From the IMG/VR virus record IMGVR_UViG_3300037244_000023: DNA of 55,266 nucleotides. One strand, given 5' to 3'. Made by a program: the position numbers and the translations under genes. The notes beneath the pieces were generated by a model. It had not been told where the DNA came from and did not search any database. It saw nothing but the letters and a program-made list of their open reading frames with translations. Source of the stretch: a virus. This document shows positions 1,713 to 49,433 of this stretch, in pieces; the stretch's first letter is position 1, and each line of letters starts with the position of its first letter.

Positions 1713-1771
1713 CCAAATTTTTGGGGGAGGGAAATTGTGAATTTGGGAATTCCAAAATTTTTGGGGAGGGG
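1713..1771. repeat. Two direct copies of CCAAA(A)TTTTTGGGG(G)AGGG flanking a GAATT...AATTC inverted repeat
   Basis: Read directly at 1713-1731 and 1752-1771. Confidence 0.85.
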
Positions 1772-1981
1772 ATATCCCTCGCGCCCCCCGGTCCAAGCTT
1801 GTGGTCCCCAGTCCCCCCGGTCATTCTTACCCACAGCCAGGGTCGGGCTAGGCCAGCGTTGCCCAGCAGCACAGGTAGACTGGGCAGGACGTGCCTAGCC
1901 AGGCTGGGGAGCTGGGCATATCTTGTATGATAAGGATAAGATTAATGTTTATTTTATTGGGTGAGTGGGCAAGAAAGGATA

Positions 1982-2020
1982 TCCTCCTGTTGCACTAGGC
2001 GTCCTCCCGTTGCACTAGGC
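1982..2020. repeat. Tandem direct repeat, 2 x about 20 bp (TCCTCCYGTTGCACTAGGC)
   Basis: Read directly: tcctcctgttgcactaggc g tcctcccgttgcactaggc. Confidence 0.9.
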
Positions 2021-2566
2021 ATGCTTTGCTTGATCCTTCCATCCAATGATATCAGCAGCATGTATGATGCACATGTTACCCAGCATTGAATGCATGATGA
2101 GCAATGTATTATAGATACCATGTGTAAACACTAGATGCATAGTATGGGATGCTAACGCATTAAGATGCATGGATAGGCTCATGGAATATGAGTAAGGTAT
2201 GCTCATGTATAGAGCATGGATACTTTGTAGTCACAGTGTGTAATAAGTAGTCACTCATCTAGTAGTACGAACGGTCGTTCTATTTTCAGCTCAGACTAGA
2301 ACCTAGTTCTAAATAGAAATCATTTTCATCTGGCCTACCCTGTCAAAACAGAACTCATTTCTACATGAAAACCATTTTCATTTAGCCATCGGTCAAGGTC
2401 GAGCTTGCCGACCAGCATGTGCCGAATCCGATTGGGTAGGCTAGATGTATCCCTGGCATCCTGGGCCCTCCTGGCGCAAGCATGGGCCATCCTGGGAACC
2501 TTGGGCCATATCCTCTATTAGTGTGCGATCCATCCATCCGTTGTGTGATATTCGTCACATGAGGTA

Positions 2567-2595
2567 TTGACGTTTAAACCCAACGGACATATCCT
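2567..2595 (+). promoter_or_regulatory. Sigma70-like promoter (TTGACG-17-TATCCT) overlapping a GTTTAAAC site
   Basis: Hexamers and spacing were read directly. It lies 37 nt upstream of the 2632 ORF. Confidence 0.45.
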
Positions 2596-2631
2596 TCCAT
2601 TGGGTCGATTGATCCAAACGGAGGAACGCAA

Positions 2632-2703
2632 ATGAACATACGCTTTTTGGTCTGTGCCATCCTAGGCGGTATCGTTTCAATCCTTGTTTCCATCCTCTTC
2701 TAA
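2632..2703 (+). CDS. Very small hydrophobic peptide (23 aa)
   Basis: GGAGG lies 8 nt upstream. Translation is MNIRFLVCAILGGIVSILVSILF. Confidence 0.3.
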   Translation: MNIRFLVCAILGGIVSILVSILF

Positions 2704-2713
2704 GGGGAATCCA

Positions 2714-3292
2714 ATGCCATCCATAGCCATAGATGCTCGTGAATCATGGCTCCATGCCGTGACTGATGCCATCCGGCCCTGGTACGCGGCCCTTGGTCAT
2801 CCAATCCCCGAGGTCCAGCTAGCTTGCGGTTTTCCGTCATCCGGTATCCGGTCTAAAACAATCGGGGAATGTTGGAGCCCAGCGGCTAGTGCAGATGGTC
2901 GCAAGCCTCAAATATTCATTCATCCTAAATATGACAATGCCGTGACCGTGGCTGAAATCCTAGTGCATGAACTGGTCCATGCGGCTGTAGGGAACAAGTG
3001 TAAACATCATGGGCCATTTAAGACTACGGCATTAGCCATAGGGCTTGAGGGGGATATGAAGGCCACCCATGCCGGGGCCGCGCTAATTGAACGTCTGGGG
3101 CCAGTCCTGGAAGCCATCGGCCCCTATCCTCATTCTGCCCTAGCCGGTCTAGTGAATCCCAAAAAGAAGCAGACCACCCGCATGATCAAATGCACATGCC
3201 CCGGATGCGGCTATGTGATTCGTACTACCCGGCAATGGCTAGACAAGGCCATCCCCCAATGTGGCATATGCGAGGCCCCTTTCACATATTGA
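2714..3292 (+). CDS. SprT-like zinc metalloprotease-fold protein with a C-terminal zinc ribbon
   Basis: HExxH motif in ILVHELVHAAVG and a C-terminal CTCPGCG...CGICE. The ATG at 2714 is preceded by AAGGGG; the track ORF starts at 2684. Confidence 0.6.
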   Translation: MPSIAIDARESWLHAVTDAIRPWYAALGHPIPEVQLACGFPSSGIRSKTIGECWSPAASADGRKPQIFIHPKYDNAVTVAEILVHELVHAAVGNKCKHHGPFKTTALAIGLEGDMKATHAGAALIERLGPVLEAIGPYPHSALAGLVNPKKKQTTRMIKCTCPGCGYVIRTTRQWLDKAIPQCGICEAPFTY

Positions 3293-3362
3293 TGTTTAAA
3301 CGCAAGGAAATAATTCCTTGCACATTGTTCCAATGAGTGTAACCTGAACTGGAGGAAAGACC

Positions 3363-3590
3363 ATGAATCGATCCAATCCAATCGAATCCATCCTGGACGC
3401 GGCCCATAGCCAACCTGGGATGTATTCCATCGTCCGAATCTGGCCCCGGATTGAGCGGCTAGCAATCCATCTGAAACGGTCGAACGCCACGGATCAATAT
3501 CATGCCCTGGCCCTGGCCGGTCAAAAAATCGCTCAGGTATGGCGGGGCTATGACGGGAATGCGTATATCCTCAGGCAAACGGGGAACTGA
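3363..3590 (+). CDS. Hypothetical protein (75 aa)
   Basis: GGAGGAAAG Shine-Dalgarno sequence upstream of the ATG. Confidence 0.6.
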   Translation: MNRSNPIESILDAAHSQPGMYSIVRIWPRIERLAIHLKRSNATDQYHALALAGQKIAQVWRGYDGNAYILRQTGN

Positions 3591-3756
3591 CCATTACTAG
3601 CTATGATATCAACCATCCGCCTACAATCCACAATCAATCATCCCAATGGGTTTCTTCCAAAACGAATATTGAAACCTGAAACCGGAATTGACGATTTGAC
3701 CGTCTAGACGGTCAATAAATTCGGGCAATCCCGCCCGGATGTTTTTGGAGGCTCCA

Positions 3757-4224
3757 ATGAACCATATTTCCAACATCACTGGCATCCTGGCCGTGGGCGA
3801 TACCCTGTCGTTTCGTGACGAAGCCGACAATATCCTGACCTATACGGTCAAGACTACTCGCCGCTCCAATCTGCCCTATCTGGCGCACAACGATGGGGAT
3901 AACCGGGAAATTTTCGCGGCCCTGGATATGAGTGGCGCGGATATCGCGGCCATGGCGCAGGCCGCCTACGGCTATGCCGCGACCGGCCCCAAGTTCCCCC
4001 GCGCGCAGTCCAATGATTTCGCGGCCCTGACGCGGTTGGCAAACGCCATTTTTGCCAAGATCTCCAGCCCGGCCCCCAGCCCGGCCCCCGTCCCGGCCCC
4101 GGTCGCCCCGCCCTTCCCGGCCCCGGTCGCCCCGCCCTTCCCGGCCCCCGTCACGGTCAAGAGTGGCAAGTACTCCGTCACAATTTCTCTGACGGAGGCG
4201 GGGATCACTATCGTTATCAGCTAG
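3757..4224 (+). CDS. Hypothetical protein with a Pro/Ala-rich repeat linker
   Basis: GGAGG precedes the ATG at 3757. It contains PAPVAPPFPAPVAPPF. Confidence 0.6.
   Translation: MNHISNITGILAVGDTLSFRDEADNILTYTVKTTRRSNLPYLAHNDGDNREIFAALDMSGADIAAMAQAAYGYAATGPKFPRAQSNDFAALTRLANAIFAKISSPAPSPAPVPAPVAPPFPAPVAPPFPAPVTVKSGKYSVTISLTEAGITIVIS
4093..4140 (+). repeat. Perfect 24-bp tandem duplication inside the 3757-4224 gene
   Basis: ccggccccggtcgccccgcccttc occurs twice, read directly. Confidence 0.9.
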
Positions 4225-34616: not shown

Positions 34617-34689
34617 GGGTTAACCTCTTTGAAGTTGATGGGAGAATGCGGGGGCCGTGTCGCGCACGATCATAAGCCCCCGCGATTGT

Positions 34690-35613
34690 TTAGTTAAGAC
34701 AGGCGCTGATTTCAACCAGAAGCCAGGGCTTCGTCACCAGGAACCCGAAGAAGTTCTGGCAGCGGGTGCCGATACCGAACTTATTGGGCAGGATGATGTC
34801 GGCCTGGACATTGGTGAACTTGGTGGCCATGGTGGTCGCTTCAGGATGCCCCGCAACGGCCAGGTAGGGGGAACCGCTGGTACCGGCACCAGGGACAAAC
34901 GGACTCTGGAGCACGTTGAAGCCATTGATGTAGGCCAGGAAGCCCTCATAAAGAGCACCCTTGGGGATGCCCGCATTCAGCGCATAGAACGCGGGGTTGG
35001 CAGTCAGGCCGAGCCTCATGTTGGGGTGGATGACCAGATAGCGGTCTTCCCACGGGGCAACGTCAATGCCGTTACCAGCACCAACGTCAAGGTACTGAGA
35101 AGCCTGGGCAACCGCAGTCACAGCGTTGGTGTAAGGCTGAGTGGCGGAAATACCAGACTGCCAAGCAGTAGTCGCGCCGGTGGTGAGGGTGATCACGTTG
35201 GCTGCGGAAGCGTAAACAGAACCCAGAATGGTGGATTCAATCGCCATACGCAGTTTATTGATCATTTCGTTGATCAGTGCGCCTTCCATGTCAACGTCAA
35301 TCGCGGAGCGATCAACGTCAGTCACCCAGTATGCACCGTTAAACGCATAGTTGATGACAAGCTGGAGGGCAGACGCCTGGATGGACTGCCAGTTCACATC
35401 ACCATCGTTGGTGGCCGCACTGACAACCACATCAGGGATCTGACGCAGGTTGACCGTGGTGCCTGGTCCGAGGATGTCCCCTTCCCAGTTCGTATTGCAC
35501 ATGTAGTTGGTGATACTACCGGCATAGAACTTCTGGATGAACTGCAAGGGGTAAAGCTGGGGCTTGAAGGCAGAAAGGTTGTTGAAAGCACTACCAGTGA
35601 TGTTGCCAGCCAT
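34690..35613 (-). CDS. Major capsid protein (P22-coat-like)
   Basis: Contains NTNWEGDILGPGTTVNLRQIPDV (compare the coat-family y/f-eG-i...GdtV-v-r-P motif). 307 aa, downstream of the scaffold gene. Confidence 0.8.
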   Translation of the reverse strand: MAGNITGSAFNNLSAFKPQLYPLQFIQKFYAGSITNYMCNTNWEGDILGPGTTVNLRQIPDVVVSAATNDGDVNWQSIQASALQLVINYAFNGAYWVTDVDRSAIDVDMEGALINEMINKLRMAIESTILGSVYASAANVITLTTGATTAWQSGISATQPYTNAVTAVAQASQYLDVGAGNGIDVAPWEDRYLVIHPNMRLGLTANPAFYALNAGIPKGALYEGFLAYINGFNVLQSPFVPGAGTSGSPYLAVAGHPEATTMATKFTNVQADIILPNKFGIGTRCQNFFGFLVTKPWLLVEISACLN

Positions 35614-35625
35614 GTTAGTTCTCCT

Positions 35626-36111
35626 TTACTCAGTCACGGGGTTGGTGTAGGGGATCAGCGAAGATGCGAGGAAACCCACATCAATCACAGCACCCGTGGC
35701 GGCAGCGGTGGTACCGAGCGTAACCAGGAGATAGTCCGAAGCCACCGGATAATACTTCCAGGTGGACGCGGCACTCAGGGTAACGCCAGTCGCAGCGGTG
35801 GAGAAGTTGGAAATATACTGGGTAACGGAACTAGAGTCACCCACGCTGACGGTGCTACTAGCCGCACCAGCGGTGATAACATACATCCAGACCGCGATGA
35901 CAAACGCGCCCTGGTCAATTACGTTGGTTCGGACCACATCCCCGGTCAGGGGGGTGAGGCCGTTCCAATCGGGGGAATTCTGCACGGTGAAAGCCCTGCG
36001 CCGAATACGAGTCGGGGGGCCTTCCCAAAGCTGTTCCTGGCGATTGTTCATGTAACCGGTGTTAGAGCCAGTAGTCAGAGGAATCGTCAGGTCGGTAACG
36101 GGGTTAGACAT
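35626..36111 (-). CDS. Small beta-rich head-associated protein (decoration candidate)
   Basis: Lies between the scaffold and coat genes and is Thr/Ser/Ala/Val-rich. Confidence 0.4.
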   Translation of the reverse strand: MSNPVTDLTIPLTTGSNTGYMNNRQEQLWEGPPTRIRRRAFTVQNSPDWNGLTPLTGDVVRTNVIDQGAFVIAVWMYVITAGAASSTVSVGDSSSVTQYISNFSTAATGVTLSAASTWKYYPVASDYLLVTLGTTAAATGAVIDVGFLASSLIPYTNPVTE

Positions 36112-36129
36112 TTCCTATCCTATGATGAA

Positions 36130-37251
36130 TTATTGGTTGGGTTTGAGTCGTTCAAATCGGGTCATAAAATTCTTGGCTTCCGCCATCTTCAAATCCCGAA
36201 TTTCCTTAGAATTCTTGGTATTGGTTGCTTCACGCATGAGTTTGTCCATAATCGACTGGGCATTGCGGATCTCATCGGTGGTCAGAGGCGGTTCCTGGGT
36301 TCGGGTTTCAACCCGAGTAGGAGCGGAGCCAGAGATTTGTGCGGCGAGATCGCCCGGTGTGGGCTGGCGGCTGGAGGTTCCAACCGGCATTTGGGACGCT
36401 TTGAACTCATTAACCACCTTTGCCACAAAGAACGGGGTATGCCCTCTGGGGTTAACAATAGCTGCGGAATACTCTGCTGGCATCTGTTGCGTCCAGGCAA
36501 CCAGTGCTGGGCCTTTTGCGCCACCATCTGCATAGTCCATGTAATCAGGGACCAGCTTGGTGAACACATCATCCCAAGTCTGTTGCCGAGTCGTATTTTG
36601 ATGCTGGAGGAGTGCTTCCTGCCGTTGTTTTTCCTGATCTCGCAATTCTTGAAGCTCTGCCTGATGCTTGCGCTCCATGGCTTCCATTTGCTGCTTGGTA
36701 GTCATGCTCAATCGCCGGAAGCGATCCGCAACAACAGGGTCCAGGGTTTCCAGTTCCGTATCCAATTCGGGTTCGTAAGCGGAAGCCTGGGGCTTCTTGA
36801 AAAGCTCTTTCAGTTCAGCGATCTGGGTAGTAAGACTATCCAGTTGGCTCTTGGTGGTTTCCCGTTCCGTCTTCAGGTCTTGCGCCAGAACAGCACTTCG
36901 CTGCATGGCGGGGGTAAGGGCCTGACACGCTTCTCGGTACTGCTTCTGGAGTTTGGCGTATTCCTCAGCGGTCACAGTCGGACTAGGTTCAACGACAGGG
37001 GCCGGGGGAGGCGGGGCGGGGGCTGCGGGCAATTCAATGACCGTAGGGGTTGAGAAATTGGCGGGGTCAGTATTAGACCCGGTTCCAACAGGCTGGGCTT
37101 CAGTGGTGACAGGGGGCAGTCCGGGCTGGCTAACCTGGGTATTACCCTGGTTGAGATTTGCCAGAACAGCATCCAGTTCCTTCTGACGCCTTGCGGCATC
37201 GTGGTTGGGAACGCGCTTGAGGGTTGTGGGATCGTATTCAGTAGTGGTCAC
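36130..37251 (-). CDS. Scaffolding protein (putative)
   Basis: Long charged coiled-coil sequence (ELKELFKK, QMEAMERKHQAELQELRDQEKQRQE), located between the portal and coat genes. Confidence 0.6.
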   Translation of the reverse strand: MTTTEYDPTTLKRVPNHDAARRQKELDAVLANLNQGNTQVSQPGLPPVTTEAQPVGTGSNTDPANFSTPTVIELPAAPAPPPPAPVVEPSPTVTAEEYAKLQKQYREACQALTPAMQRSAVLAQDLKTERETTKSQLDSLTTQIAELKELFKKPQASAYEPELDTELETLDPVVADRFRRLSMTTKQQMEAMERKHQAELQELRDQEKQRQEALLQHQNTTRQQTWDDVFTKLVPDYMDYADGGAKGPALVAWTQQMPAEYSAAIVNPRGHTPFFVAKVVNEFKASQMPVGTSSRQPTPGDLAAQISGSAPTRVETRTQEPPLTTDEIRNAQSIMDKLMREATNTKNSKEIRDLKMAEAKNFMTRFERLKPNQ

Positions 37252-37273: not shown

Positions 37274-37513
37274 TTAGGTTGCTGACGTTGTATTGCTAGG
37301 GTTGATAAGGCTTAATAGGTCTTTCACTAGCGCAATGCGCCCCTGGATGATGTTGATACAAACGGGGTCACGTTCAATCTTCTCCAAATTATCGCGGTAA
37401 CTTTCCCGCGCACGGATAAGCCATTCAGCTAAAATTTGCATCTGCTCGGATTGGTGCATCGCGCTGAGTTTGGTGCAAAGTTGAATGATCGGGACTTCTT
37501 CAAACCGTCTCAT
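37274..37513 (-). CDS. Hypothetical protein (79 aa)
   Basis: ORF from the track; its start overlaps the portal stop. Confidence 0.5.
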   Translation of the reverse strand: MRRFEEVPIIQLCTKLSAMHQSEQMQILAEWLIRARESYRDNLEKIERDPVCINIIQGRIALVKDLLSLINPSNTTSAT

Positions 37514-39807
37514 CGCCTTCGCCCCCTATGAGTAGTCGCTGGTTTAGAGGGACGGGTGGGAGGGGCTTTGGTCGGAGCCGCACCTTCTTCCGGCTGGGGC
37601 AATAGGTGGGGATGCCGTTCAAGCGGGTTATGCGCCGGTTCAAATGGGCGATTCCCCATCTCATGCCCAATCTGGCTGGCTTCGTTGACGTTGCCAAGGT
37701 GCGCCATGTGGTCTTCTTCTGCCATGGCACCCGTGATCGCCGGGGTATTGATGTTGTAAATCTGGTTGGCGAGTTGCATATAAGCCAGCCGCAGGGGGCT
37801 ATTCTCTGGGGCTTCCTTGACCAGTTCGATCACCGCATCCTTGAGTGGCATCTCTGCCCGCAGTTTCGGCTGGGCCTGGACACTGGCCTGGATGCCAGCA
37901 TTGTAAGCGGCATTCTTCTGGGCTTCCGCAGCCTTCTTCTGCTGAATTTCCAGATATTCGGAATCAGAATAGACCAAATCCTCATTTACCAGACCACTAT
38001 AGCGCAGGTAACTGTTGAAGAAATTGGACATCTTCAAGCGGTCTGCTTGTTCCGGCAGGTTGCCGATGTTCTGGAGCAAGAGTTGCATAGCTTCAGTCAG
38101 GGATTCCCGCGCCAGCAAGCCCTTCACCCCATGAGCGGTAACCCGGTATGCGCCCTGAATGGCCGGGTCTTTGGAGAACATCTGGAAGAACCGGATCTTC
38201 TTCTGAGTGCTGGGAACGATATAGTTGGCTTCAATATTGTAAACAGCAGTTTTGAGCGTGGTCAGCGCATTGTTCCACTGGAGGTTCGCGCCACCGAAGG
38301 TCCGGTTATGGGCACCTTCGGTTGAACCATTCAGGAACTTGGGGAGGCCAGTCTGTTCATCCGCAAGCCGTTCCTCATTCTGCTGAATTTGCAGCATCTC
38401 CGCGAATTCATAGGTGGGCATGAAGAATTCGATGGGCTTCATGGTGGTACCGATCTTGCCCCGAACACCCCAAATCTTACGGGGAGCAATCTCCAGGACA
38501 GTGGTGATGTCTGCCAATTGGTCTACATCCACCATCATCTGTGGGGCAACGCACATAGCCATGGCATCCATCAGTGCTCGTTCACACCCCTGAATGCCAT
38601 CATGTTGATCGAACATCATCTCTGCAACGCCAACACCCCAGATCGAGTTGGTCGCAATGGAGTAGGGCACAAAGTAGAAGGGAAGCCGCTCATTATGCAG
38701 TTCGCTGATGGCTACCTTGATAACCTCATTGCCCATCACCCAAATCTGAGCCACCAGCCGACTATCCATCTGCTTCCTGGTGATTCCTTTAACGCCATTA
38801 TCAGCAAGATCCTTGCCGGTCAGATAGCCCCACCATTGGAAGCATACGAACCGGCCATTGGGTACCGTCTGCTGGGGTTGTTTGTTTAAACTGTTAACCG
38901 ATGTTTCCCAGAAAGTCGGTTGCCAAATCCCATTAGGATGCTTCTCTAAAAGGTCTTTGATTTTCTCTTTATCAAAGGTGGGGTCATCCATCATCCCCAT
39001 GACCTGACCCTTGCCTAGCGGCATCCGCCAGATCATAAACCGAGCCATTTCAACCGTGGTTGCACCGGGGTCCGGGTAAATATCCAGAGGGCAAATGCGT
39101 TCCATCTGGGGCAGATATTCATCAAACAGCCCCATGTCGATCATCTGCTTCAGTGCCTTCTTATTGAAGGGCTTCTTTTCTACCGGGGTCCAAACGGATG
39201 AGTCTTCTTCCTCATCCTCTGCGGGTTCTTCCGATATTTCAGAATTCTGAATGGCCAGCGGCCCCATGACAATGCCGGTGCCGAACACCACCAGATCCCA
39301 CAGAACCAACAGCAACTTATCCGTCAGGCGAGTATAATCATCGCCTTTCTTGATTTTTGCGGTTAGCCTATCAGCCTTCTTCCCGGCTGCCTGGAATAGC
39401 ATGTCCCGAATTTGGTCAACTGGGGTGCCCTTCTGGAGCAACCCCCACGCTGCCTTCGGGTCCATCGCTTCTGGGTCTGGGTCAATAGTGAAGCAATCCT
39501 GCCCAGGAGGGCAAACAATAGGCATCAAAAGAGCAACAGCGGTCTGTAGTTTGGGCCTAGTGGAGTTTACTGCTGCTTGGCTAGTTGTTGACTCTGAACT
39601 ATCGTCCAGTAAATAATATGCACGGCTGTTAAATAGTGCCCGCAGAAAGACTTGCTGTTCCTGGAAAATGCGGGCTGAAGATGCCATTTGGAAATCGTGC
39701 ATCACTCTTACTGCAAGGGTTTCACCATCCCTACCGCCACCACCATACCCCTCAACTACTGATGGGGGGGCAGACGGTTCTGATATTAATGAAAGCCCTT
39801 GGGGCAT
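37510..39807 (-). CDS. Portal protein (putative, 765 aa)
   Basis: Called from size and position, immediately downstream of TerL and upstream of the scaffold and coat genes. Confidence 0.7.
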   Translation of the reverse strand: MPQGLSLISEPSAPPSVVEGYGGGGRDGETLAVRVMHDFQMASSARIFQEQQVFLRALFNSRAYYLLDDSSESTTSQAAVNSTRPKLQTAVALLMPIVCPPGQDCFTIDPDPEAMDPKAAWGLLQKGTPVDQIRDMLFQAAGKKADRLTAKIKKGDDYTRLTDKLLLVLWDLVVFGTGIVMGPLAIQNSEISEEPAEDEEEDSSVWTPVEKKPFNKKALKQMIDMGLFDEYLPQMERICPLDIYPDPGATTVEMARFMIWRMPLGKGQVMGMMDDPTFDKEKIKDLLEKHPNGIWQPTFWETSVNSLNKQPQQTVPNGRFVCFQWWGYLTGKDLADNGVKGITRKQMDSRLVAQIWVMGNEVIKVAISELHNERLPFYFVPYSIATNSIWGVGVAEMMFDQHDGIQGCERALMDAMAMCVAPQMMVDVDQLADITTVLEIAPRKIWGVRGKIGTTMKPIEFFMPTYEFAEMLQIQQNEERLADEQTGLPKFLNGSTEGAHNRTFGGANLQWNNALTTLKTAVYNIEANYIVPSTQKKIRFFQMFSKDPAIQGAYRVTAHGVKGLLARESLTEAMQLLLQNIGNLPEQADRLKMSNFFNSYLRYSGLVNEDLVYSDSEYLEIQQKKAAEAQKNAAYNAGIQASVQAQPKLRAEMPLKDAVIELVKEAPENSPLRLAYMQLANQIYNINTPAITGAMAEEDHMAHLGNVNEASQIGHEMGNRPFEPAHNPLERHPHLLPQPEEGAAPTKAPPTRPSKPATTHRGRRR

Positions 39808-39869: not shown

Positions 39870-42260
39870 TTAAAGCCCTACCCTACGGTTCTTCGGTGTC
39901 CATTGGACAATTTTAGGGATTGGCTTAACAGTGGTGGTTCCTGGGACTCGCGCTTGGTCAAGGGCCATGATTGCATAACGGAGTGCGTCAATCGTATCAT
40001 CGTGACGTTCTGTTACCTTCATTGCCCCATTCTTCGCCTTTACCATGCGATATGCACCCATTTGCTTAATCAATTCCCTACAAGTAGAGAATATAAACAG
40101 CCGTTTCTCTGCAATCATTTCATTAATCATATGGATGGATTCAAAGACAGATCCACCTTTAGTGATGGCATCCGCAATATCTAACCCATCTTCGCGGAAC
40201 ATATCAAATACGCGCTTACCATCAGTGGGTGATCTTCGATGTGAGCTAGTATCAATCTTAAACTCAATATCCCCCCATGCCCTCAATGCTGCGGAGTGGA
40301 CCCCTGGCAGGTTCCCAGATCGCAGGTATTCTCTGTAAACATATACAGTTGGAGGTTCATTCCTATTTATATATTCCAACGCCAATGCAACCGCACTGGT
40401 CCCATGCTCAAGCCCAACATCTAGCCCACCAATCCTAGGCCAATGTGGCTCCACTTCAAATGGATCAATCACATAATCATCCCTACTGAAAGCAAAGATG
40501 CGCCCTTCCCCAGACCCAGATCGTCCATACAACCGGCTTTCCTGCATCCAAAGTGGCATGGTTTTCTTATGCATTTCGATTTCAGCAGGGTCCAAGGTCT
40601 TGTTCTCCTCCATGTGGAACTCGTAATGGCTACAGTAATCAGATGGCATTTTATCAAGTAGATCCAACATTTCTGGTTCCTCATCTTTTGGATAGTAAGA
40701 CATGATGATATACCCCTGATTATCAATCAGACGCATCTGCACTTCCACAAAGATGTCTATATCAGCTTGCTCATCGAACCATGCCACTTTCCATGCAAAG
40801 CCTTGGAATTTAGCAGCTCCTTGCTCTTTGACCATGAATTCAATACGACATATGCCCCCTGATGCATGTTTCACCAATACCCAGTCCAAACATCCATTGG
40901 TTCCGGCTCTCCATGCATAATCAACAATCAAGTCCTTGGGAATATAGCCAGTGCCAATCTCATGCGGTTCGCCCATCAACTTGACTTGTGCAGATTTCCT
41001 CATTTGTTCTGTACTGATTGAAATAACCCCATATATGTATGCTTCGGTAAATCTTAGCCCCTGCCACCAATCAGGGTAAATACCAGTTATGTGGCAAGCC
41101 ATTGTAAATGCACAACTTTCAGACTTCCCACTATTATGGTTTAAAATATCACCAATAAAATAATTATTGTAATCATCCATCAAAAAATCCCATACAAAAT
41201 CATTGCGGAGGTAATTGATTTGCATTACACTTCTATTGGAGGTGTTAAATGGAGTGGAAACCGAAAGTGGACGGGAGAGGCCGGGGCGTTGGGAAAAATC
41301 AAGCGGGGTATGATTGGCCCGTGGACCAGATGCGGCAATGGGTTGAAATTGATTTGTTGACTCATAAAGAAATTGGCAAAAGGCTTGGAGTAAATCCCAA
41401 GCTCGTTTCCAAAGCGTGTAAGCGGTTTGGAATACGCTGCCAACGCAGAGGGCCGCGTGGCGGCGAAGGGCACCCAGAGTGGAAGGGGGGAAGGAATTTT
41501 GACAAGTATGGGTATATTTTAGTCCATTGCCCAGGGCATCCAATGGCCCGAAAAATGGGGAAGGGGAGGAAGGCTGCGTACGTTCCCGAACATCGGCTTG
41601 TGATGGCTGAATTTCTTGGGCGCATGTTGGAACCGGGCGAAGTTGTCCATCATAAGAATAGCGATGTGACTGATAATCGGATTGAGAACCTTGAATTGTA
41701 TACTTCAAATGGTCAACATCTCCGAGATGAGCTTGCGGGTAGATGTCCCAATTGGTCGCCGGATGGGGAGCAAAGGCTTCGCGTTGCTCGACATAGAGGG
41801 AACATTCAAGCCATCCTTTTGGACCCCACAATAAATGATGCGGTGAAACTACAATTTCAGTTCCATCATCAAACACCAATTGGTATAGATCATCCTTTGC
41901 CTTTTGGAATGGTTGATGAGCCAAAGCAATAACCTTGTTCTTCCCATCCCATGCCCAAACATGAAAATCGCCATTGATTTGGTCAATCCGCATTGTCTGG
42001 TGTGCAACCGGGTCATAAATTAATTGTTCCCCCCCCATACACCTGTTCCCGCCTCTTACATCCACAATCTTGTGTTTATCCGCATGAATCGCAACTTGGT
42101 GATCCTGTGGCTCATATTGGTATAATTTGCCCTCTCGTTTGCGGGATGCCAATGCTTCAATAGCCTCAACCGCTGCATCCGCCTGGGCCAGAGACATCTG
42201 ATCCACCAACGCATCCAGTTCTGCTTCGGTAAACTTGCGTTTTTCGCCAGCCACTTGCAC
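39870..42260 (-). CDS. terL: Terminase large subunit precursor containing a 303-aa intein in the Walker-A loop
   Basis: The exteins join as VRGGNR|SGKSES, giving a G-x4-GKS P-loop. The C-terminal nuclease-type region includes GGLDVG and TIDALRYA. The putative start at 42260 is GTG. Confidence 0.9.
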   Translation of the reverse strand: MQVAGEKRKFTEAELDALVDQMSLAQADAAVEAIEALASRKREGKLYQYEPQDHQVAIHADKHKIVDVRGGNRCMGGEQLIYDPVAHQTMRIDQINGDFHVWAWDGKNKVIALAHQPFQKAKDDLYQLVFDDGTEIVVSPHHLLWGPKGWLECSLYVEQREAFAPHPATNWDIYPQAHLGDVDHLKYTIQGSQSDYQSHRYSYDGQLRPVPTCAQEIQPSQADVRERTQPSSPSPFFGPLDALGNGLKYTHTCQNSFPPSTLGALRRHAALCVGSVFQTAYTLWKRAWDLLQAFCQFLYESTNQFQPIAASGPRANHTPLDFSQRPGLSRPLSVSTPFNTSNRSVMQINYLRNDFVWDFLMDDYNNYFIGDILNHNSGKSESCAFTMACHITGIYPDWWQGLRFTEAYIYGVISISTEQMRKSAQVKLMGEPHEIGTGYIPKDLIVDYAWRAGTNGCLDWVLVKHASGGICRIEFMVKEQGAAKFQGFAWKVAWFDEQADIDIFVEVQMRLIDNQGYIIMSYYPKDEEPEMLDLLDKMPSDYCSHYEFHMEENKTLDPAEIEMHKKTMPLWMQESRLYGRSGSGEGRIFAFSRDDYVIDPFEVEPHWPRIGGLDVGLEHGTSAVALALEYINRNEPPTVYVYREYLRSGNLPGVHSAALRAWGDIEFKIDTSSHRRSPTDGKRVFDMFREDGLDIADAITKGGSVFESIHMINEMIAEKRLFIFSTCRELIKQMGAYRMVKAKNGAMKVTERHDDTIDALRYAIMALDQARVPGTTTVKPIPKIVQWTPKNRRVGL
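41133..42041 (-). mobile_element. Intein (TerL aa 74-376): Cys1 ... His-Asn, with Ser at +1
   Basis: N-terminal block CMGGEQLIYDP, block-B-like GTEIVVSPHHLLWG, and C-terminal block VWDFLMDDYNNYFIGDILNHN followed by S. TGT at 42039-42041 and AAT at 41133-41135 were verified on the reverse strand. Confidence 0.8.
41249..41932 (+). CDS. HNH homing-type endonuclease (HTH plus HNH_3 core), encoded antisense inside the TerL intein
   Basis: GGAGG lies 6 nt upstream of the ATG. It has the HTH segment LTHKEIGKRLGVNPKLVSKACKRFGI and the core GYILVHCPGHP...YVPEHRLVMAEFLGRMLEPGEVVHHKNSDVTDNRIENLELYTSNGQH. Confidence 0.9.
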   Translation: MEWKPKVDGRGRGVGKNQAGYDWPVDQMRQWVEIDLLTHKEIGKRLGVNPKLVSKACKRFGIRCQRRGPRGGEGHPEWKGGRNFDKYGYILVHCPGHPMARKMGKGRKAAYVPEHRLVMAEFLGRMLEPGEVVHHKNSDVTDNRIENLELYTSNGQHLRDELAGRCPNWSPDGEQRLRVARHRGNIQAILLDPTINDAVKLQFQFHHQTPIGIDHPLPFGMVDEPKQ

Positions 42261-42347
42261 CCCCGCTTAAAGAACTTACACTGAAGTTGACCCGTGGTGG
42301 GTCGAGAATGCCCAGTTCCGGGCGCAACCAACCAGAGAAGGAAAGCC

Positions 42348-42755
42348 ATGCAGACCGTCCAAGAAAAACTGAATATCAAGTACCACCGAATCATTGGCAG
42401 CGGGACCATCCAGACCCCTGGCCATTCCACTCTGGCTGAAGCCGCTGTGGTTCTCCCGCCCCAGGCATTTGCCGATGGCCCCCACGGGGAAGTGCTCGGT
42501 GAGCATGTTGACCATATGGAGGGCCACGAAAAGATGCTGGATGCCCACGCCAAGGAAGGGCATCTGGGCAAACACTTTACCCATACTTTCCAGGAGATGA
42601 CTACCCAGGAAGGCTCCGGTATTGATCATCCCGGTGAGTATGACTACAACGAAATGTCCCATCCGCACGAACTGCGTGGTGACGGTGCGAGACACAATCC
42701 GCATCATCCCAAGCATCCTCATCACAGCCGAAGCCACAAGACTCCGCACAAGTAA
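42348..42755 (+). CDS. His-rich hypothetical protein (135 aa) on the strand opposite to the packaging genes
   Basis: GAAGGAAAG lies upstream of the ATG. The sequence looks protein-like whereas the 292-aa antisense ORF does not. The C-terminus reads HNPHHPKHPHHSRSHKTPHK. Confidence 0.5.
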   Translation: MQTVQEKLNIKYHRIIGSGTIQTPGHSTLAEAAVVLPPQAFADGPHGEVLGEHVDHMEGHEKMLDAHAKEGHLGKHFTHTFQEMTTQEGSGIDHPGEYDYNEMSHPHELRGDGARHNPHHPKHPHHSRSHKTPHK

Positions 42756-43066: not shown

Positions 43067-43094
43067 GCCCCTCGCTTCGGCGGGGGGCTTTGTT
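43067..43094 (+). terminator. Rho-independent terminator with a C(UUCG)G tetraloop
   Basis: 9-bp stem gcccctcgc/gcggggggc around the ttcg loop, then tttgtt. It sits between the convergent 42765-43046 (+) and 43093-44388 (-) genes. Confidence 0.7.
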
Positions 43095-44388
43095 ATATGG
43101 CATCGGCATCTCCAAACTCAGGGACGGGATGGGACACGGGTTCCATCGGCTCAAGTTCGATGATGTCAGATACCGCTTCGCCCCTAAGCAACATCTTCAG
43201 CTTACGCTTGACCTCCGCTTCGTTCTTCATGTCCAGATTCTCAGTCTGGATGACCTTCTTCTCAATGAATTTGGGTGATTGCAGCGCAGCCCGCTTCATC
43301 AGGAAATTAGTCTGGGCCTTCGCCACCCCCAGTGCTTCCTTGCTGGTATCCGATTCTAGCCCCATGATGATTTCCTGGGCATGGTCCATGAAGACCTGGG
43401 CCTGGATGGTTTCCGCCTGTTCCAGTTCCCTGCGAAAATCCGGGTAATACTGAAGCCACCGGGCAATCTCCAGCATGGAGGGAGTTCCGTTGACCCCCTT
43501 GCAGATGTCCCGCAGCGTCTTCCCCTCAGTGATTGCCCATGGGATGTACTGCATCATCTGGTAGCGGTTGGCTGGTTCCGCATCAATCCGGTAGATGGGT
43601 TGCCGTGCATCGGCCTTGATCCGCATCAGGATACTGCTGAAGGTCTTGTCCGATAGGGTATTGCCACCCTTTTCCCTGGTTGCCAGGATAAAATCCTCAT
43701 CCATGTTGTAGAACTTGGGGGACACCTTCAGGTCTTCCGGCAATGGGCGCAAGTCATTACGCATCTTTGGCTTGGATTTGTCCGGCCCGACCTCCATGGT
43801 GATCCTCTGCCGTTCCAGCGGGTGTTCTGGGATGCTGGAGATGACAATCCCCGCCTCATCTGCGGTAACAAAGATTTCTTCCCGGTTGAATCCCCTGCCG
43901 CCACCCGGCTTGCCATTGGCGTAAATATCGTCGTGCAAGTGATCGGGGAGTTCCCCGCAGACCCAATCACAACTGTAAACCTGCATCTTTTCCAGATTCC
44001 CTTGGAAGATTTCCGGCACATTCTTGTGCGCCTTGGTTGCCCTGACCCAGTATGTCTTGCCAATCAATTTAGCTAGACCACGGGTTAGATAGGGGATGTG
44101 CCCCCGTAGAAATGCCAATCGGCGGAATTTGGTGGCTTCCTGGATGGGCATACGGATACAGGGTTGTTCGGTATCAAACTCCCTGAGAAATGGGATGATG
44201 TCCACCAGATCCCGCGCTACCAGGAACATGATTTCCTTAAATGCAGCCGCTATTAGGTCTTCATCCGTGGCCGTTGTCGGCAGCGGAGTCCTTAAAAGAA
44301 GCCGCCCATCGGAAATCTTTAGATTCGTCTCGGTTTCCCCTCTTTGAACCGTCAGCCTGGGGGTCCGATAGAACGGATAGTAGTTCAT
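43093..44388 (-). CDS. Terminase small-subunit-like protein (TerS-type HTH region in the C-terminal third) fused to an uncharacterised N-terminal domain of about 270 aa
   Basis: ITEGKTLRDICKGVNGTPSMLEIARWLQYYPDFRRELEQAETIQAQVFMDHAQEII resembles the TerS HTH plus helix. The start is uncertain because the ORF overlaps the upstream ORF by 128 nt. Confidence 0.5.
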   Translation of the reverse strand: MNYYPFYRTPRLTVQRGETETNLKISDGRLLLRTPLPTTATDEDLIAAAFKEIMFLVARDLVDIIPFLREFDTEQPCIRMPIQEATKFRRLAFLRGHIPYLTRGLAKLIGKTYWVRATKAHKNVPEIFQGNLEKMQVYSCDWVCGELPDHLHDDIYANGKPGGGRGFNREEIFVTADEAGIVISSIPEHPLERQRITMEVGPDKSKPKMRNDLRPLPEDLKVSPKFYNMDEDFILATREKGGNTLSDKTFSSILMRIKADARQPIYRIDAEPANRYQMMQYIPWAITEGKTLRDICKGVNGTPSMLEIARWLQYYPDFRRELEQAETIQAQVFMDHAQEIIMGLESDTSKEALGVAKAQTNFLMKRAALQSPKFIEKKVIQTENLDMKNEAEVKRKLKMLLRGEAVSDIIELEPMEPVSHPVPEFGDADAI

Positions 44389-45166: not shown

Positions 45167-45748
45167 CTAAGAAAGCAGGTTAACCCAACCTTCGGGCGGC
45201 GGCTCAAGCCCATCCATCCAGCGAGTCCGGCCTTCCGCTTTACTCCAATCATATTGGGGTTCCGGGGCTTTCCGGGTGCAGCCAGATATATTACTGTGGT
45301 CCATATTCATTTTGACTTCGCCTATTTCATTTTGATAGACCAGCATCATATCCAGCATGTTCCGAAGGTCTTCCTTGCAGCGGGTATCATGGAACAGAAT
45401 CCAGCCACCCAACTTGAGTCGCTGGAATGCGGCCAGCGCAAAGGGGAAGCGGTCTTCGGCGGTGCCATCCACGAAGACCAGATCAAACAGTTGCCCATCA
45501 CAGCCAGGGAGCCCAAGATTATATTCCATGAGCCGGATCTTGCTGAAATCTGCTCCTAAATCCACCAGATTAGACCGGGTTCGGTCAATCCAATAGGGGT
45601 CAGGCTCCAGGGAATACAACTGGGTCCCACACTGGGCAAAGATCATGGTTGACCCGCCCATGCCAAACTCCAGCGTCTTTCCCGCCCACTTGCCATACTT
45701 CTCCAGTACGGCAGCGTCAAACTTGGAAATAAGGCCCAGGTACTTCAT
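45167..45748 (-). CDS. Class I SAM-dependent methyltransferase
   Basis: Motif I LEFGMGGST, a post-I acidic residue, and DLVFVDG ... WILFHDT. Confidence 0.75.
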   Translation of the reverse strand: MKYLGLISKFDAAVLEKYGKWAGKTLEFGMGGSTMIFAQCGTQLYSLEPDPYWIDRTRSNLVDLGADFSKIRLMEYNLGLPGCDGQLFDLVFVDGTAEDRFPFALAAFQRLKLGGWILFHDTRCKEDLRNMLDMMLVYQNEIGEVKMNMDHSNISGCTRKAPEPQYDWSKAEGRTRWMDGLEPPPEGWVNLLS

Positions 45749-46758
45749 TTTGATTCCTCCGCAATGGCTTCACAAAGTTCCTGGTAGAACTTGTCCCGCA
45801 TATCCCACCAAGTAGTCATGTGTTTTAAAATATAGACCTTCTTCTCCATCTTCAGGGTCAAACCAGCGATCATCTTGGCCGATTGTAAGCAATTATGGTC
45901 AATCAGATACCGCGCCAGCAGGAAATAGGATTCCAGCCGCTCAGGATCGGCATTAATTGCTGCCATATATGCTTCCACAACCTCATTTGCTGGCTTCCGC
46001 TCCATGGCCGCACAGACCGCCAAAAGATGATTAGCCATCCAGATATTCTCCAAATTGTCCTGTTCTGTGACCATTTTCAGGTATTTTCGGAAGTATTCGG
46101 CGGCTTTATCGTAAATTCGGCAATCAGTGAAGCAGCACCCCACCAGGAAGGTATAATATCTATATTCAGATGATTCCTGGGGCCAGTTGGGGAGGTCTTT
46201 TAGGATAGCGATGGCATCATCAATCCCCTTGTTTGGATTCTTCGACCGTGCCCCTTCATGGTGGATCTGGATCTTGATCTGCTCGGGCCGCAATAGACTC
46301 ACGGTCCCCATGCGGTCCAAAACCTCATGCCGAACATACTTCCAGCGCACATCCTGGTCCATACGAATCAAATGGGCACGGAAGTTGGTCATGTCATTCT
46401 CAACATTACCGATGGCATAGATAGGATCGACCAGTGCTTCCTTCAGAAAGGGCATCCCCACTACCATCTCATCATCTGCGTCCATGAGCAACCAATAATC
46501 CTCTGGACCGCGCCCCTCGGCAGGGAGCATGGATGGGATAGCAAGATTCCGGTGGTAGGCGAAGTCATCCTGCCAAGGGCTTGATATAATCTCCCCAGGC
46601 ATTTCTTCCATCACCCTACTAATAATTTCCACGGTATCATCAGTAGACCCAGTATCTACGATCCGATAGGAATCCACCAGCCATTTGACCGAATTGAGAC
46701 ATCGCTCAATACAGTGGCCTTCATTGCGGCAGATCATACTCAAACAGACTTTTGGCAT
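45745..46758 (-). CDS. Family-2 glycosyltransferase with a C-terminal helical-repeat region
   Basis: Motifs LSMICRNEGHCIERCL, IVDTGSTDDT, WQDDFAYHRN, LLMDADDE. Confidence 0.75.
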   Translation of the reverse strand: MPKVCLSMICRNEGHCIERCLNSVKWLVDSYRIVDTGSTDDTVEIISRVMEEMPGEIISSPWQDDFAYHRNLAIPSMLPAEGRGPEDYWLLMDADDEMVVGMPFLKEALVDPIYAIGNVENDMTNFRAHLIRMDQDVRWKYVRHEVLDRMGTVSLLRPEQIKIQIHHEGARSKNPNKGIDDAIAILKDLPNWPQESSEYRYYTFLVGCCFTDCRIYDKAAEYFRKYLKMVTEQDNLENIWMANHLLAVCAAMERKPANEVVEAYMAAINADPERLESYFLLARYLIDHNCLQSAKMIAGLTLKMEKKVYILKHMTTWWDMRDKFYQELCEAIAEESK

Positions 46759-47234
46759 TCTGACTCCAGAGGATGTTTAACCGTAAATGGATATTGAACT
46801 GTTCGCCATCTTACCCATATACCCTGTATTGGGTGGATATACTTATCTGCCATGACTGATACCACCTGACAATCATCACAGTAGAGCAACCCCTTCGCCA
46901 AAGTCTTTACACCCAGATATGTGTAGTAATGTGGCCCCAGTGAGTCGAGTAGTAACTTGAGACAATTATCTAAGTCCGGGCGAATAGCGTGATATGCTGT
47001 CGTTTTACCCTTGAAAAAGAATCTCACTGAGATTGCGAGTGGATATGGGATTGGTTCTTTGATTACATTGTGATACTTCACATAGTCACGGATAAAGTGT
47101 TCCGCTTCCCTGGTTCGCCTTGGGGTAAAAGCCCCCCCATACTTGGACAGACGGGGCCTTCCCTTGGGGGTGGGTGCAAACGGTATCCACATTTCGCCGT
47201 GGAGATCAGGGATGTCGGTAATTGGGTTAGTCAT
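46740..47234 (-). CDS. rusA: RusA-family Holliday junction resolvase
   Basis: Motifs PKGRPR, FTPRRTREAE, RPDLDNCLKLLLDSL, YCDDCQV. The start is taken at MTNPITD. Confidence 0.8.
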   Translation of the reverse strand: MTNPITDIPDLHGEMWIPFAPTPKGRPRLSKYGGAFTPRRTREAEHFIRDYVKYHNVIKEPIPYPLAISVRFFFKGKTTAYHAIRPDLDNCLKLLLDSLGPHYYTYLGVKTLAKGLLYCDDCQVVSVMADKYIHPIQGIWVRWRTVQYPFTVKHPLESECQKSV

Positions 47235-47992: not shown

Positions 47993-48394
47993 CCCATAGC
48001 TCCCGATGGCTGAAGTGCCATACCCATGATACAACCATCCAAACCCATGCGCCACAAATAATTTCGCCACCCCAAAACGGAGTGGCGGCGGCTTGGTTGG
48101 GTGGAGGTTGCTCTCCCCTTGGGTGTCGATCCCTTCGGCTTTCACCCCGTCATCGACCTTGCGGGGGTGAAGCCGTTTCACAAATTGCGCCGGGGCCAGC
48201 ACCCCCAGGACGGCAGAAATGGGGGTTGTCCAGTCTCCGCGAAGGCCAGAACCCCCGGCGCAAATGAAAGATACAACATTCAGTGCAACAGTCAACCCCA
48301 CCCTGAAATTTATTTTATAGCGATGTTTCGTTAATTTATAAGGAATAAAATAGTAAATTTACGGCATTATACTTAGGGGTGGGGCACCCCCCCC

Positions 48395-48423
48395 TTGTGC
48401 ACCATGGGGGTTTCTCGTAATAT
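48395..48423 (+). promoter_or_regulatory. Sigma70-like promoter (TTGTGC-17-TAATAT) for the plus-strand arm, in an AT-rich divergent region
   Basis: Hexamers and 17-nt spacer were read directly. It lies 30 nt upstream of the 48454 gene. Confidence 0.5.
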
Positions 48424-48453
48424 GAACCATCTACATTTTCCCCTGGAGGTCGC

Positions 48454-48663
48454 ATGACTTGGGTGTTGCAATCGTTTGATGTGCCCGGATTGATGAAGGT
48501 TGACCTACATGGCTCGGCTGTAGCTCTAAGCGGGACAGCGGCCAATGGCTCACCTTCGGCAATCATTATTTTCCCCAAAGCCCAATCTGATGCACATGCC
48601 GCTGCGTTGATGTTAAGACGAGCGGCCAGAAGGTTGGAAGAAATCGGGAAGGAGTTGTCATAA
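48454..48663 (+). CDS. Hypothetical protein (69 aa), first gene of the plus-strand arm
   Basis: GGAGG precedes the ATG. It is preferred over the antisense 137-aa ORF. Confidence 0.55.
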   Translation: MTWVLQSFDVPGLMKVDLHGSAVALSGTAANGSPSAIIIFPKAQSDAHAAALMLRRAARRLEEIGKELS

Positions 48664-49433
48664 TGACAATTTCCCGAACTTGGAACCTCAGACTCAACAT
48701 AGATGAATTCAATGCAGCATATGCCACGCTGGTCAAGGAAGGTGATCATGCATTGTTTCTGGCTGGCCTATTTGCAGGGATCAACAATGCATCTTTGGAT
48801 GATCCAACCGGACCACTCGGGATTGGTTTTCTGATTGGGCAGGGGATGAGGATGGAGGCAGAAGAATTTAGAGCCATGAAGAAAACGGTTGGAGGGAGGG
48901 GTGGAAGGCCCAAAAATAACCTATTGGTTAACCAACAGGTAGACCAACAGGTTAACCAAGTGGTATACCAACAGGTAGACCTATTGGTGAACCCAATCCA
49001 CAATCCACAATCCTTTAACCCTATAACCCCAAACCACAATCCAAAGAAGCCAACTAGGCAAAAACAGCCTAGTTGGAATCAGAAGTTTCCTTTGGATGTT
49101 GTTGAAGCAACCAATGAGATTCTTGAATTCTGGCCAGATGGAAAGAAAGACATTCAACCCAAGAAATGTGCGGCTGATCCTACCCAATACGTCCCAGAGA
49201 CTCATTCCCGCTTCCTTGCCGCAAGATTGGCAGACATTCAGCAGGAAGGTGGTGATTTGAAGATATGTGTTGAGATTGCCAAACAATATGTGGATAGCTA
49301 CAAGAGGGGACGGAACTGGGTCAAGGCCGCTGAATACTTCTTTGGCAAAACAGAAGATGCTAAGTGGAAGGCTTACTACCAGTCAGAGATCACCAACCGG
49401 GAGATTGAAGCACATGAAACAGACCCAGCGTGA
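48663..49433 (+). CDS. Hypothetical protein containing an internal iteron-like array (candidate replication initiator, lambda O-like arrangement)
   Basis: ATGA-coupled to the upstream gene. It contains GGRGGRPKNN followed by the repeat-encoded LLVNQQVDQQVNQVVYQQVDLLVN. The function is inferred from the arrangement only. Confidence 0.5.
   Translation: MTISRTWNLRLNIDEFNAAYATLVKEGDHALFLAGLFAGINNASLDDPTGPLGIGFLIGQGMRMEAEEFRAMKKTVGGRGGRPKNNLLVNQQVDQQVNQVVYQQVDLLVNPIHNPQSFNPITPNHNPKKPTRQKQPSWNQKFPLDVVEATNEILEFWPDGKKDIQPKKCAADPTQYVPETHSRFLAARLADIQQEGGDLKICVEIAKQYVDSYKRGRNWVKAAEYFFGKTEDAKWKAYYQSEITNREIEAHETDPA
48920..48991. repeat. Six tandem 12-bp units (consensus CCAACAGGTWRA; the outer units are CCTATTGGTKAA)
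   Basis: Read directly: cctattggttaa ccaacaggtaga ccaacaggttaa ccaagtggtata ccaacaggtaga cctattggtgaa. Three CACAATCC copies follow. Confidence 0.9.

Follow-up and report, generated by a model that had tools for sequence, protein, structure and literature searches.

We describe a gene arrangement that uses both DNA strands of a single locus in IMG/VR virus record IMGVR_UViG_3300037244_000023, a stretch of 55,266 nucleotides (hereafter, the window). The large terminase (TerL) gene of this virus very probably carries a composite selfish element: a class-1 intein in the Walker A motif and, antisense in the dispensable middle of that intein, an HNH_3 (I-HmuI-like) homing-endonuclease gene. The evidence comprises the anatomy of the locus, the selection pattern on its two reading frames, a presence/absence polymorphism among sibling phages, a recombination tract beside the insertion, and the occurrence of the same arrangement across very divergent terminases. 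All full-length relatives of the HNH protein that we examined (130/130) are encoded antisense inside a Walker A terminase intein, with one frame offset and zero stops in the host frame.

A putative class-1 intein splits the terminase Walker A motif

The TerL open reading frame (ORF) is interrupted within its Walker A motif by an in-frame insertion of 909 nt. Its parts are as follows, in order of translation after the whole ORF.

39870..42260, minus strand: large terminase (TerL) precursor ORF including the intein; 796 aa, GTG start (ORF list, Pfam, AlphaFold2 [AF2] model)
42042..42260, minus strand: N-extein, aa 1-73, ending ...VDVRGGNR, the first half of Walker A (alignment to intein-less homologues)
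41133..42041, minus strand: putative class-1 intein, aa 74-376, 303 codons, Cys74...His375-Asn376 and then Ser377 (909-nt indel, profile, fold)
41787..42041, minus strand: Hint N-terminal splicing region, aa 74-158, with blocks A and B (C74, S139-P-H-H142) (alignment A5, AF2)
41235..41786, minus strand: intein interior in the terminase frame, aa 159-342, probably a disordered linker (model confidence, no Pfam match, low identity)
41133..41234, minus strand: Hint C-terminal splicing region, aa 343-376, with blocks F and G (VWDF..., Asp358, His375, Asn376); its plus strand is the 5' leader of the HNH gene (A5, C-terminal match to Pfam Intein_splicing)
39870..41132, minus strand: C-extein, aa 377-796 plus stop, beginning SGKSES, the second half of Walker A, followed by the ATPase and nuclease domains (alignment, Pfam)

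The host gene is a terminase of the Terminase_6 type, with a Walker A ATPase domain and a C-terminal RNase H-like nuclease domain. Terminase_6N (aa 377-592) and Terminase_6C (aa 639-766) both score above their Pfam cut-offs. Foldseek matches the AF2 model to solved terminases, including D6E (E 1.7e-17), the nuclease domain of P22 (template modelling [TM] score 0.82) and Sf6. Its neighbours are a portal gene (37510-39807) on one side and a small-terminase-like gene (43093-44388) on the other. A blastn comparison of the TerL gene DNA with 50,697 phage records gave zero matches, and relatives were located via proteins, in a search for TerL homologues across 5.8 billion proteins.

The borders of the intein are defined to the base. 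The first-pass annotation, made from the sequence of the window, had placed a TerL P-loop intein at 41133-42041. Three intein-less sibling contigs (L006-L008), aligned to the window by blastn, leave unmatched 41131-42041 minus 2 nt, a 909-nt indel that confirms these coordinates exactly. Deletion of aa 74-376 in silico, which that annotation had proposed, yields a product of 493 aa, which can be aligned over its full length, P-loop included, to intein-less terminases (491-494 aa). The Terminase_6N match also improves in the spliced product, and its start moves to aa 70 (E 4.3e-9). The closest intein-less homologue, P0003 (491 aa), is 98% identical over the exteins and has the junction GGNR/AGKSE. 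Long insertions like that of the window occur in three homologues (P0001, P0002 and P0004), while P0010 and P0013 carry mini-inteins without an interior at the identical site.

The splicing domain has the full class-1 catalytic set: Cys74, which directly follows GGNR, S139-x-x-H142, Asp358, His375-Asn376 and Ser377. We aligned the splicing parts of 23 hand-checked sequences (alignment A5) and found C1, H69, G60, K47, D107 and N125 to be invariant, and H124 nearly so. In block B, Ser replaces the Thr of the usual T-x-x-H motif (S139-P-H-H142), and its His corresponds to the invariant H69 of A5. The residue after the intein is Ser377 in the window and Ala or Gly in intein-less alleles. The A5 profile matches solved inteins in the PDB (NpuDnaB 5e-20, Ssp DnaB 1e-18, Mtu RecA 1e-15, gp41-1 6e-11). 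The earlier proposal of Hint-type ends with Cys74 and Ser377 is upheld; gp41-1 is the closest solved intein to the single window sequence. The C-terminal block had been placed at aa 355-376. The block itself is present, but its start is aa 356 (VWDF...NHN, 356-376). The Hint N-terminal region is modelled as beta-strands with a pLDDT (predicted local distance difference test) score of 56-81, and Foldseek matches the Hint parts of the precursor model to the Ssp DnaB intein (1mi8; E 1.8e-5, root-mean-square deviation 2.4 A). Together, these data support a Walker A class-1 intein in the large terminase of the window, whose splicing we infer from the intact catalytic residues and the essential P-loop.

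An HNH_3 gene lies antisense to the intein

The strand opposite the intein carries a second gene.

41249..41932, plus strand: gene for a 227-aa HNH_3 homing endonuclease, antisense to the intein (Pfam, PHROG, AF2)
41238..41242, plus strand: GGAGG Shine-Dalgarno sequence of the HNH gene, inside Thr-Ser codons of the intein frame, with the ATG 6 nt downstream (sequence read)

The 227-aa product matches HNH_3 (PF13392) at aa 115-154 (E 1e-11; 44.7 bits, where the cut-off is 24.8) and fifteen PHROG families of HNH endonucleases, the best being PHROG 20891 (E 9e-22). Its AF2 model has a mean pLDDT of 81, with three helices at aa 25-60 arranged like a helix-turn-helix and a core at aa 82-162 where pLDDT reaches 92-98. 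The reading of this ORF as an HNH protein with its own GGAGG and a helix-turn-helix-like segment, made at the first pass, is thus upheld. We read the protein as a probably I-HmuI-like HNH_3 enzyme that has a helix-turn-helix-like domain at its N-terminus, and not as a small HNH protein of the gp74 type. Across 82 family members, E114, H134, H135, N143, N147, N154 and H157 are invariant and H115 is nearly invariant; the residues typical of a beta-beta-alpha-metal motif, with a general-base His and metal-binding Asn/His, are thereby present. In the window, this ORF is undamaged: it has its start codon, its Shine-Dalgarno sequence and every family-invariant residue. No HNH homologue was found in the rest of the window, nor in the sibling contigs over the 15-18 kb that each provides.

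The two ORFs overlap over 228 TerL codons (aa 110-338), of which ~183 fall in the intein interior and ~45 in the Hint N-terminal domain, an overlap with the HNH tail that had been noted from the sequence. The HNH gene, read in reverse complement, makes up about 185 codons of interior. In this frame relation, position 1 of each HNH codon faces position 1 of a TerL codon. Consequently, terminase stops would arise from NTT/A, NCT/A and NTC/A over HNH codon boundaries (the slash marks the boundary).

Homology to other HNH genes stops near HNH aa 182, and the last ~45 residues are a read-through into the antisense of the Hint domain. This tail (41789-41932, plus strand; TerL aa 110-158) is the antisense of the Hint block-B region, and distant relatives end 20-40 codons sooner. 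AF2 models it partly as helices at fairly high confidence, while its substitution pattern tracks the Hint frame. On the strength of the model, the tail might be functional.

The intein interior appears to be constrained only against stop codons. Pfam and PHROG searches of the interior in the terminase frame gave zero family matches, and we dropped the idea of a hidden in-frame domain; this agrees with the earlier statement that it holds no in-frame LAGLIDADG or HNH feature. In the AF2 precursor model, pLDDT is below 50 (~25) at aa 159-275 and 298-342. Identity of the interior is 36-51% to P0001 and P0002, where the HNH frame of this DNA reaches 80-84% and the Hint parts 72-77%. Across P0001, P0002 and P0004 it is 36-62%, compared with 72-87% for the Hint N-terminal region of these three proteins. 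In the terminase frame, the interior is probably a disordered linker whose amino acids are unconserved and of which the sole demand is that it contain no stop codons.

The two frames show different patterns of selection

We find that the terminase frame is far more open across the HNH gene than expected. None of 300 synonymous shuffles of the window HNH gene is stop-free in that frame (mean, 6.5 stops), and the remaining two antisense frames of the gene contain 3 and 9 stops. In 81 sequences totalling 38.7 kb, the host frame has 0 stops, whereas the two alternative antisense frames contain 699 and 328. The corresponding frame of six free-standing HNH_3 genes (from phages phiH, GiJojo, FlyingTortilla, Weasels2, Thibault and MulchMansion) contains 2-6 stops, and in ~110 relatives that match the HNH core only, which are not nested, it is closed. 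The test of stop-codon depletion that had been suggested, against shuffled sequences and unrelated HNH_3 genes, thus came out in favor of depletion, and these patterns indicate that the terminase frame is kept open by selection.

The open frame could instead be a by-product of composition or codon usage, with the plus-strand ORF or the read-through a coincidence without selection. Codon usage alone opens a 798-aa antisense ORF elsewhere in the window (34657-37053; see below). That ORF, however, has a different frame offset, and the coincidence would have to hold against 6.5 predicted stops with 0/300 shuffles open, through 38.7 kb of stop-free relatives, and despite the 2-6 stops of free-standing HNH_3 genes and the closed frames of ~110 core-only relatives. 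This explanation is already refuted, and we give it practically no weight.

The strand conserved in amino acid sequence is that of the HNH gene, because substitutions concentrate at its third codon positions. Over HNH aa 1-182, differences at codon positions 1/2/3 number 36/19/100 between the window and L001, 20/15/70 between the window and L003, and 34/19/84 between L001 and L003; the HNH wobble position is position 2 of the terminase codons. In the tail (aa 183-227), which overlies the Hint N-terminal domain, the pattern flips to 4/10/7. The HNH gene is intact, with a shared MEWK start, in L001 and L002 (which encode P0001) and in L003 (P0002); its identity to the window is 78-84% in L001 and L003, and a 99% identical copy occurs in L097/L098. 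We propose that the HNH frame would be maintained by selection for mobility, that the terminase frame would stay stop-free because the terminase is essential, and that the interior amino acids of the intein frame would drift freely.

The nested arrangement is widespread

Relatives of the HNH protein are abundant. More than 1360 match at E <= 1e-8, and, among 1.84 billion proteins, 121 representatives of 50%-identity clusters match at E <= 1e-30. DNA scans for the locus reached at least 593 IMG/VR stretches and >260 metagenome stretches, each scan being represented here by its best 80. In the best 80 of the at least 593 IMG/VR stretches, the host frame spans the whole HNH match in 80/80 at the same offset, in ORFs of 500-1255 codons, with HNH identities of 35-60%. 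Metagenomes, genomes and metagenome-assembled genomes (MAGs) supplied 50 further nested full-length relatives. In L073, the host frame is open for 942 codons. We place no weight on L194, L201 and L211, in which the entire locus is open and which may hold masked or very GC-rich sequence.

In two relatives with 60-65% HNH identity, the terminase frame continues across the HNH gene and stays open for 798 and 869 codons, respectively. On a first look, the HNH gene of these relatives had seemed to be divergent from an N-terminally truncated terminase; this was rejected, since the DNA shows a continuous terminase frame. Their junctions are GSNR/CLGGE...HHN/SGKT and GANQ/CVGGE...NHN/SGKSH. In sequences that were read directly, we distinguish two adjacent insertion points, GGNR/C...HN/SGK(S/T), as in the window, and ANRxGK/C...HHN/T. 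The host terminases belong to Terminase_6 and Terminase_3 and are only ~25-30% identical to that of the window, compared with 45-62% for HNH and 30-50% for Hint. The HNH and Hint parts are thus more similar than the terminases that host them, which argues for spread among unrelated terminases.

Some nested loci lie on MAG contigs 342-701 kb long (L182, 701 kb, Planctomycetia; L188, 342 kb, Acidobacteria). The length of these contigs suggests that the element is also resident in prophages. One relative (L026, 452-3976, minus strand) has a terminase ORF of 1175 aa with both a Walker A intein carrying an antisense HNH gene and, downstream, a second insertion that matches LAGLIDADG_3; this terminase appears to hold two inteins of differing architecture.

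It is possible, at rather less than an even chance in our estimation, that all these loci descend from one old and very successful lineage, Hint plus antisense HNH_3 at a fixed offset, which has spread through the Walker A sites of unrelated Terminase_6 and Terminase_3 proteins, at two insertion points, in phages and prophages of many phyla. If true, this lineage may be the most abundant non-canonical class of inteins, overlooked since gene callers cannot call both strands. In a stronger version, the antisense layout would itself be adaptive: if so, the endonuclease could be timed independently of the late terminase transcript, while the intein makes the insertion harmless. Antisense transcription may also modulate terminase expression.

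Two cultured phages carry the arrangement. In Pectobacterium phage Ymer (L089, OP748252, locus 1580-3844), the 755-aa gene is labelled "hypothetical protein". In Pseudoalteromonas phage PHS3 (L090, KX912252, locus 1652-4173), a 708-codon frame spans both of two annotated genes, a 392-aa "terminase large subunit" and an "HNH endonuclease". Annotation has likewise cut the terminase at an internal start in L004 (393 aa) and L005 (P0018, 465 aa). We thus expose a systematic error, present even in cultured phages, whereby terminases are truncated or called hypothetical, or the HNH gene is dropped. This error affects terminase phylogenies and predictions of packaging type.

These split annotations could be taken at face value: the gene might be functionally split, or fractured, its two polypeptides (made, e.g., from an internal start) being joined by trans-splicing and the open frame being incidental. 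Besides the annotators' own division of P0018, L004 and PHS3, gp41-1, the closest solved intein by single-sequence search, derives from a fractured gene, and the endonuclease gene sits exactly at the break point of split inteins. Nevertheless, the host frame is unbroken in 130/130 loci at HNH identities of 35-99%, which would be senseless unless read-through were required, and the loci of Dassa et al. (PMC2677866) have three ORFs on the same strand with stop codons and intergenic spacers. We give trans-splicing a very low probability, and favor a continuous precursor.

In four relatives (L016, L033, L062 and L084), the HNH frame is broken by stops or frameshifts while the host terminase frame remains open. 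These look like decaying endonuclease genes within still-needed inteins, a state to be expected towards the end of a homing cycle. Once fixed, homing endonuclease genes decay. The window HNH gene could accordingly be a recently stranded, non-functional relic in an intein that persists since its loss would kill the terminase, an explanation to which typical decay after fixation and the four broken relatives lend some weight. The window ORF, however, retains its start, its Shine-Dalgarno sequence and all family-invariant residues; the 99% (L097/L098) and 78-84% identical copies show a purifying pattern; and the intein-minus sibling and recombination tract described below point to ongoing gain and loss. 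We consider a relic improbable, and a gene that is still maintained to be the better description. The series from mini-inteins, through inteins with an antisense free-standing endonuclease, to decayed copies supports the model in which the splicing domain comes first and the endonuclease gene invades later.

Sibling phages differ in the presence of the element

The sibling contigs L006-L008, the source of P0003, match the window colinearly (96-99% DNA identity). Both the intein and the HNH gene are missing from these contigs (15-18 kb per sibling, covering the packaging region), which still encode a complete terminase. Next to the insertion, the alleles diverge over a short tract.

40650..41132, minus strand: recombination (co-conversion) tract, 483 nt at the start of the C-extein (divergence from L006)

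This tract begins exactly at the insertion site. It is 77.2% identical to L006, with ~110 differences, mostly at third positions, and 11 amino acid changes. The next 777 nt past it are 99.1% identical, and the 220 nt upstream of the intein, on the N-extein side, contain 2 mismatches (99%). The junction residues also sort with the element: Ser at +1 and SGKSES are common to intein-bearing alleles, and the sibling's [AG]GKSEC is common to intein-less alleles. To judge from these sequences, the intein-minus sibling and the tract indicate an ongoing cycle of gain and loss.

Other cassette-like indels separate the window from L006, at window positions ~45744-45750, ~46752-46777 and 48274-49069, corresponding to L006 5895-6505, 4156-4862 and 2378-2982. 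The window lacks an N6_N4 DNA methyltransferase gene and two small ORFs of the sibling, and a segment of ~800 nt is swapped for unrelated sequence.

The siblings also bear on what the HNH protein does. The first-pass annotation had offered as an alternative that it acts in packaging, as an accessory partner of the terminase (like HK97 gp74-type proteins in cos phages) rather than as a homing enzyme. Its gene does sit in the packaging module, 130/130 family members examined are tied to terminase genes, and HNH genes beside terminase genes are a known theme (literature cited in PMC3592412). The colinear siblings at 96-99% identity, however, have a complete terminase and no HNH gene in the 15-18 kb seen. 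The protein is of the HNH_3 and probably the I-HmuI type, with an N-terminal DNA-binding-like domain such as homing nickases have; it is invariably accompanied by a Hint domain and a polymorphic insertion; and decayed copies beside an intact terminase frame show that it is dispensable to the host phage. A packaging role is thus unlikely, with only a slight chance of being correct, and homing remains our explanation.

A model for the two-strand element

We propose that the terminase mRNA would be translated straight across the reverse complement of the HNH gene, giving a 796-aa precursor with a ~185-aa disordered linker between the Hint halves. The Hint domain would fold round this linker and excise itself through Cys74, H142, Asp358, His375-Asn376 and Ser377, rejoining GGNR and SGKS as a P-loop. 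Since splicing would restore a working P-loop, the cost to the host phage would be small. The HNH protein would be produced from the opposite strand via its own ribosome-binding site, and would cut or nick, close to the Walker A coding sequence, those terminase alleles of co-infecting relatives that have no intein. Repair of the cut genome by recombination would then bring in the intein together with the HNH gene and part of the adjoining extein DNA.

Several observations weigh against this model. From sequence and structural models we infer that the intein splices and that the HNH gene is expressed, as well as the specificity of cleavage and the direction in which recombination went. The proposed search with hidden Markov models recovered the terminase domains and HNH_3 above their cut-offs, but the Pfam Intein_splicing domain (aa 91-376) only weakly: it scores 17.1 bits in the complete ORF and 24.1 bits once the interior is removed, below the gathering cut-off of 35.8. 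We attribute this to divergence and the long insert, the motifs being present; the relative L026 scores 48.5 bits. Because the single-sequence score is sub-threshold, membership in the intein family is based on the family profile and the fold. The top PDB match of the HNH model, I-HmuI (1u3e), has a probability of 0.99 with a TM score of 0.28-0.35 over 102 columns, and a weak E-value of 0.097. On the expression side, a promoter and terminator scan of 40900-42400 gave counts at the level of chance (plus-strand promoter-like sites: 3 seen against 2.4 expected), and a Shine-Dalgarno-type GGAG or GAGG precedes the HNH start by 4-18 nt in only 45/80 related loci. The polarity of the tract is also ambiguous. 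With L001 and L003 as outgroups, the two alleles are equally distant (72.3% vs 72.9%), and the tract could reflect either intein gain with co-conversion by the window lineage or precise loss by the sibling via a divergent intein-free allele.

Relation to known systems

I-HmuI is encoded on the sense strand within a group I intron. The protein described here probably resembles I-HmuI-type HNH nicking endonucleases in its HNH_3 core, its predicted accessory DNA-binding helices and the co-conversion-like tract beside the insertion. Unlike I-HmuI, it is encoded antisense in an intein.

Antisense nesting in inteins has precedents, contrary to the statement made at the first pass that no such arrangement had been described. 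For the Ssp DnaX and the Chloroflexus SpoVR-like intein, antisense LAGLIDADG genes were described by Gorbalenya in 1998 and Gogarten in 2002, as cited in a 2025 bioRxiv preprint (Gosselin, Arsenault & Gogarten, 10.1101/2025.01.02.630785). The preprint surveys actinophage inteins, some with antisense LAGLIDADG and VSR-like genes, and has HNH only as an in-frame domain. As in the window, these inteins are contiguous, their splicing blocks enclose a separate endonuclease ORF of the opposite strand, and their intein frame is open; some lie in terminase large subunits, and they are explained by a free-standing endonuclease gene that invades an intein, followed by joint mobility. The present element differs from these cases in its nuclease, which is HNH_3 rather than LAGLIDADG or VSR-like, and in its hosts, which are metagenomic and Gram-negative-infecting phages rather than actinophages. 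It also belongs to a large family (at least 593 IMG/VR stretches and 121 clusters at 50% identity) with a single offset in all members examined.

Three further systems share some of these features. Dassa et al. 2009 (PMC2677866) described inteins broken in two, where a free-standing gene of the GIY-YIG or Vsr-like kind separates the halves and every ORF is on the same strand. There, as here, the endonuclease gene occupies the canonical position between the splicing parts of a phage-type intein, and one of their loci is a terminase; their host gene, however, is two ORFs, whereas ours is continuous and its nuclease is antisense and HNH_3. A splicing intein with an in-frame HNH_3 domain (PMC6293099) likewise combines a Hint domain and an HNH_3-type endonuclease in a phage gene, but its HNH is part of the intein polypeptide and not a separate protein from the other strand. 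Finally, the ShiLan domain (PMC11855218) is a same-strand, out-of-frame HNH inside a phage methylase without splicing motifs. Its host ORF also reads through the nested HNH gene stop-free, with a product predicted to form a loop, while our HNH gene runs antisense between the two parts of a complete Hint domain, in contrast to the same-strand ShiLan with no detectable splicing domain.

The principle is thus known but rare. In the literature searched, neither the HNH_3 version nor its link to the terminase Walker A motif nor its abundance seems to have been described. We found no report of an antisense HNH_3 gene in an intein, the one paper retrieved on the subject being the 2025 preprint with its other nuclease types, in a search that left most subscription journals outside, such that absence is no proof.

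The arrangement is a clean antisense overlap, in which one strand is constrained in protein sequence and the other only against stops, and it should be useful for testing methods of overlap detection and selection analysis. The compact Hint domain with its tolerated linker of ~185 aa may interest intein engineers, and the HNH enzymes would be new site-specific nucleases against a conserved ATPase motif.

A second antisense ORF in the head module

The window contains another long antisense ORF, of 798 aa on the plus strand (34657-37053), opposite three minus-strand head-module genes (36130-37251, 35626-36111 and 34690-35613). The last of these matches the major head protein family PHROG 267; the ORF itself has no family match. 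We considered it as a second nested gene and rejected it. It lies in the codon-complementary frame, and the head genes are nearly devoid of TTA, CTA and TCA codons. Its frame is thus open because the head genes avoid these codons, through codon usage alone.

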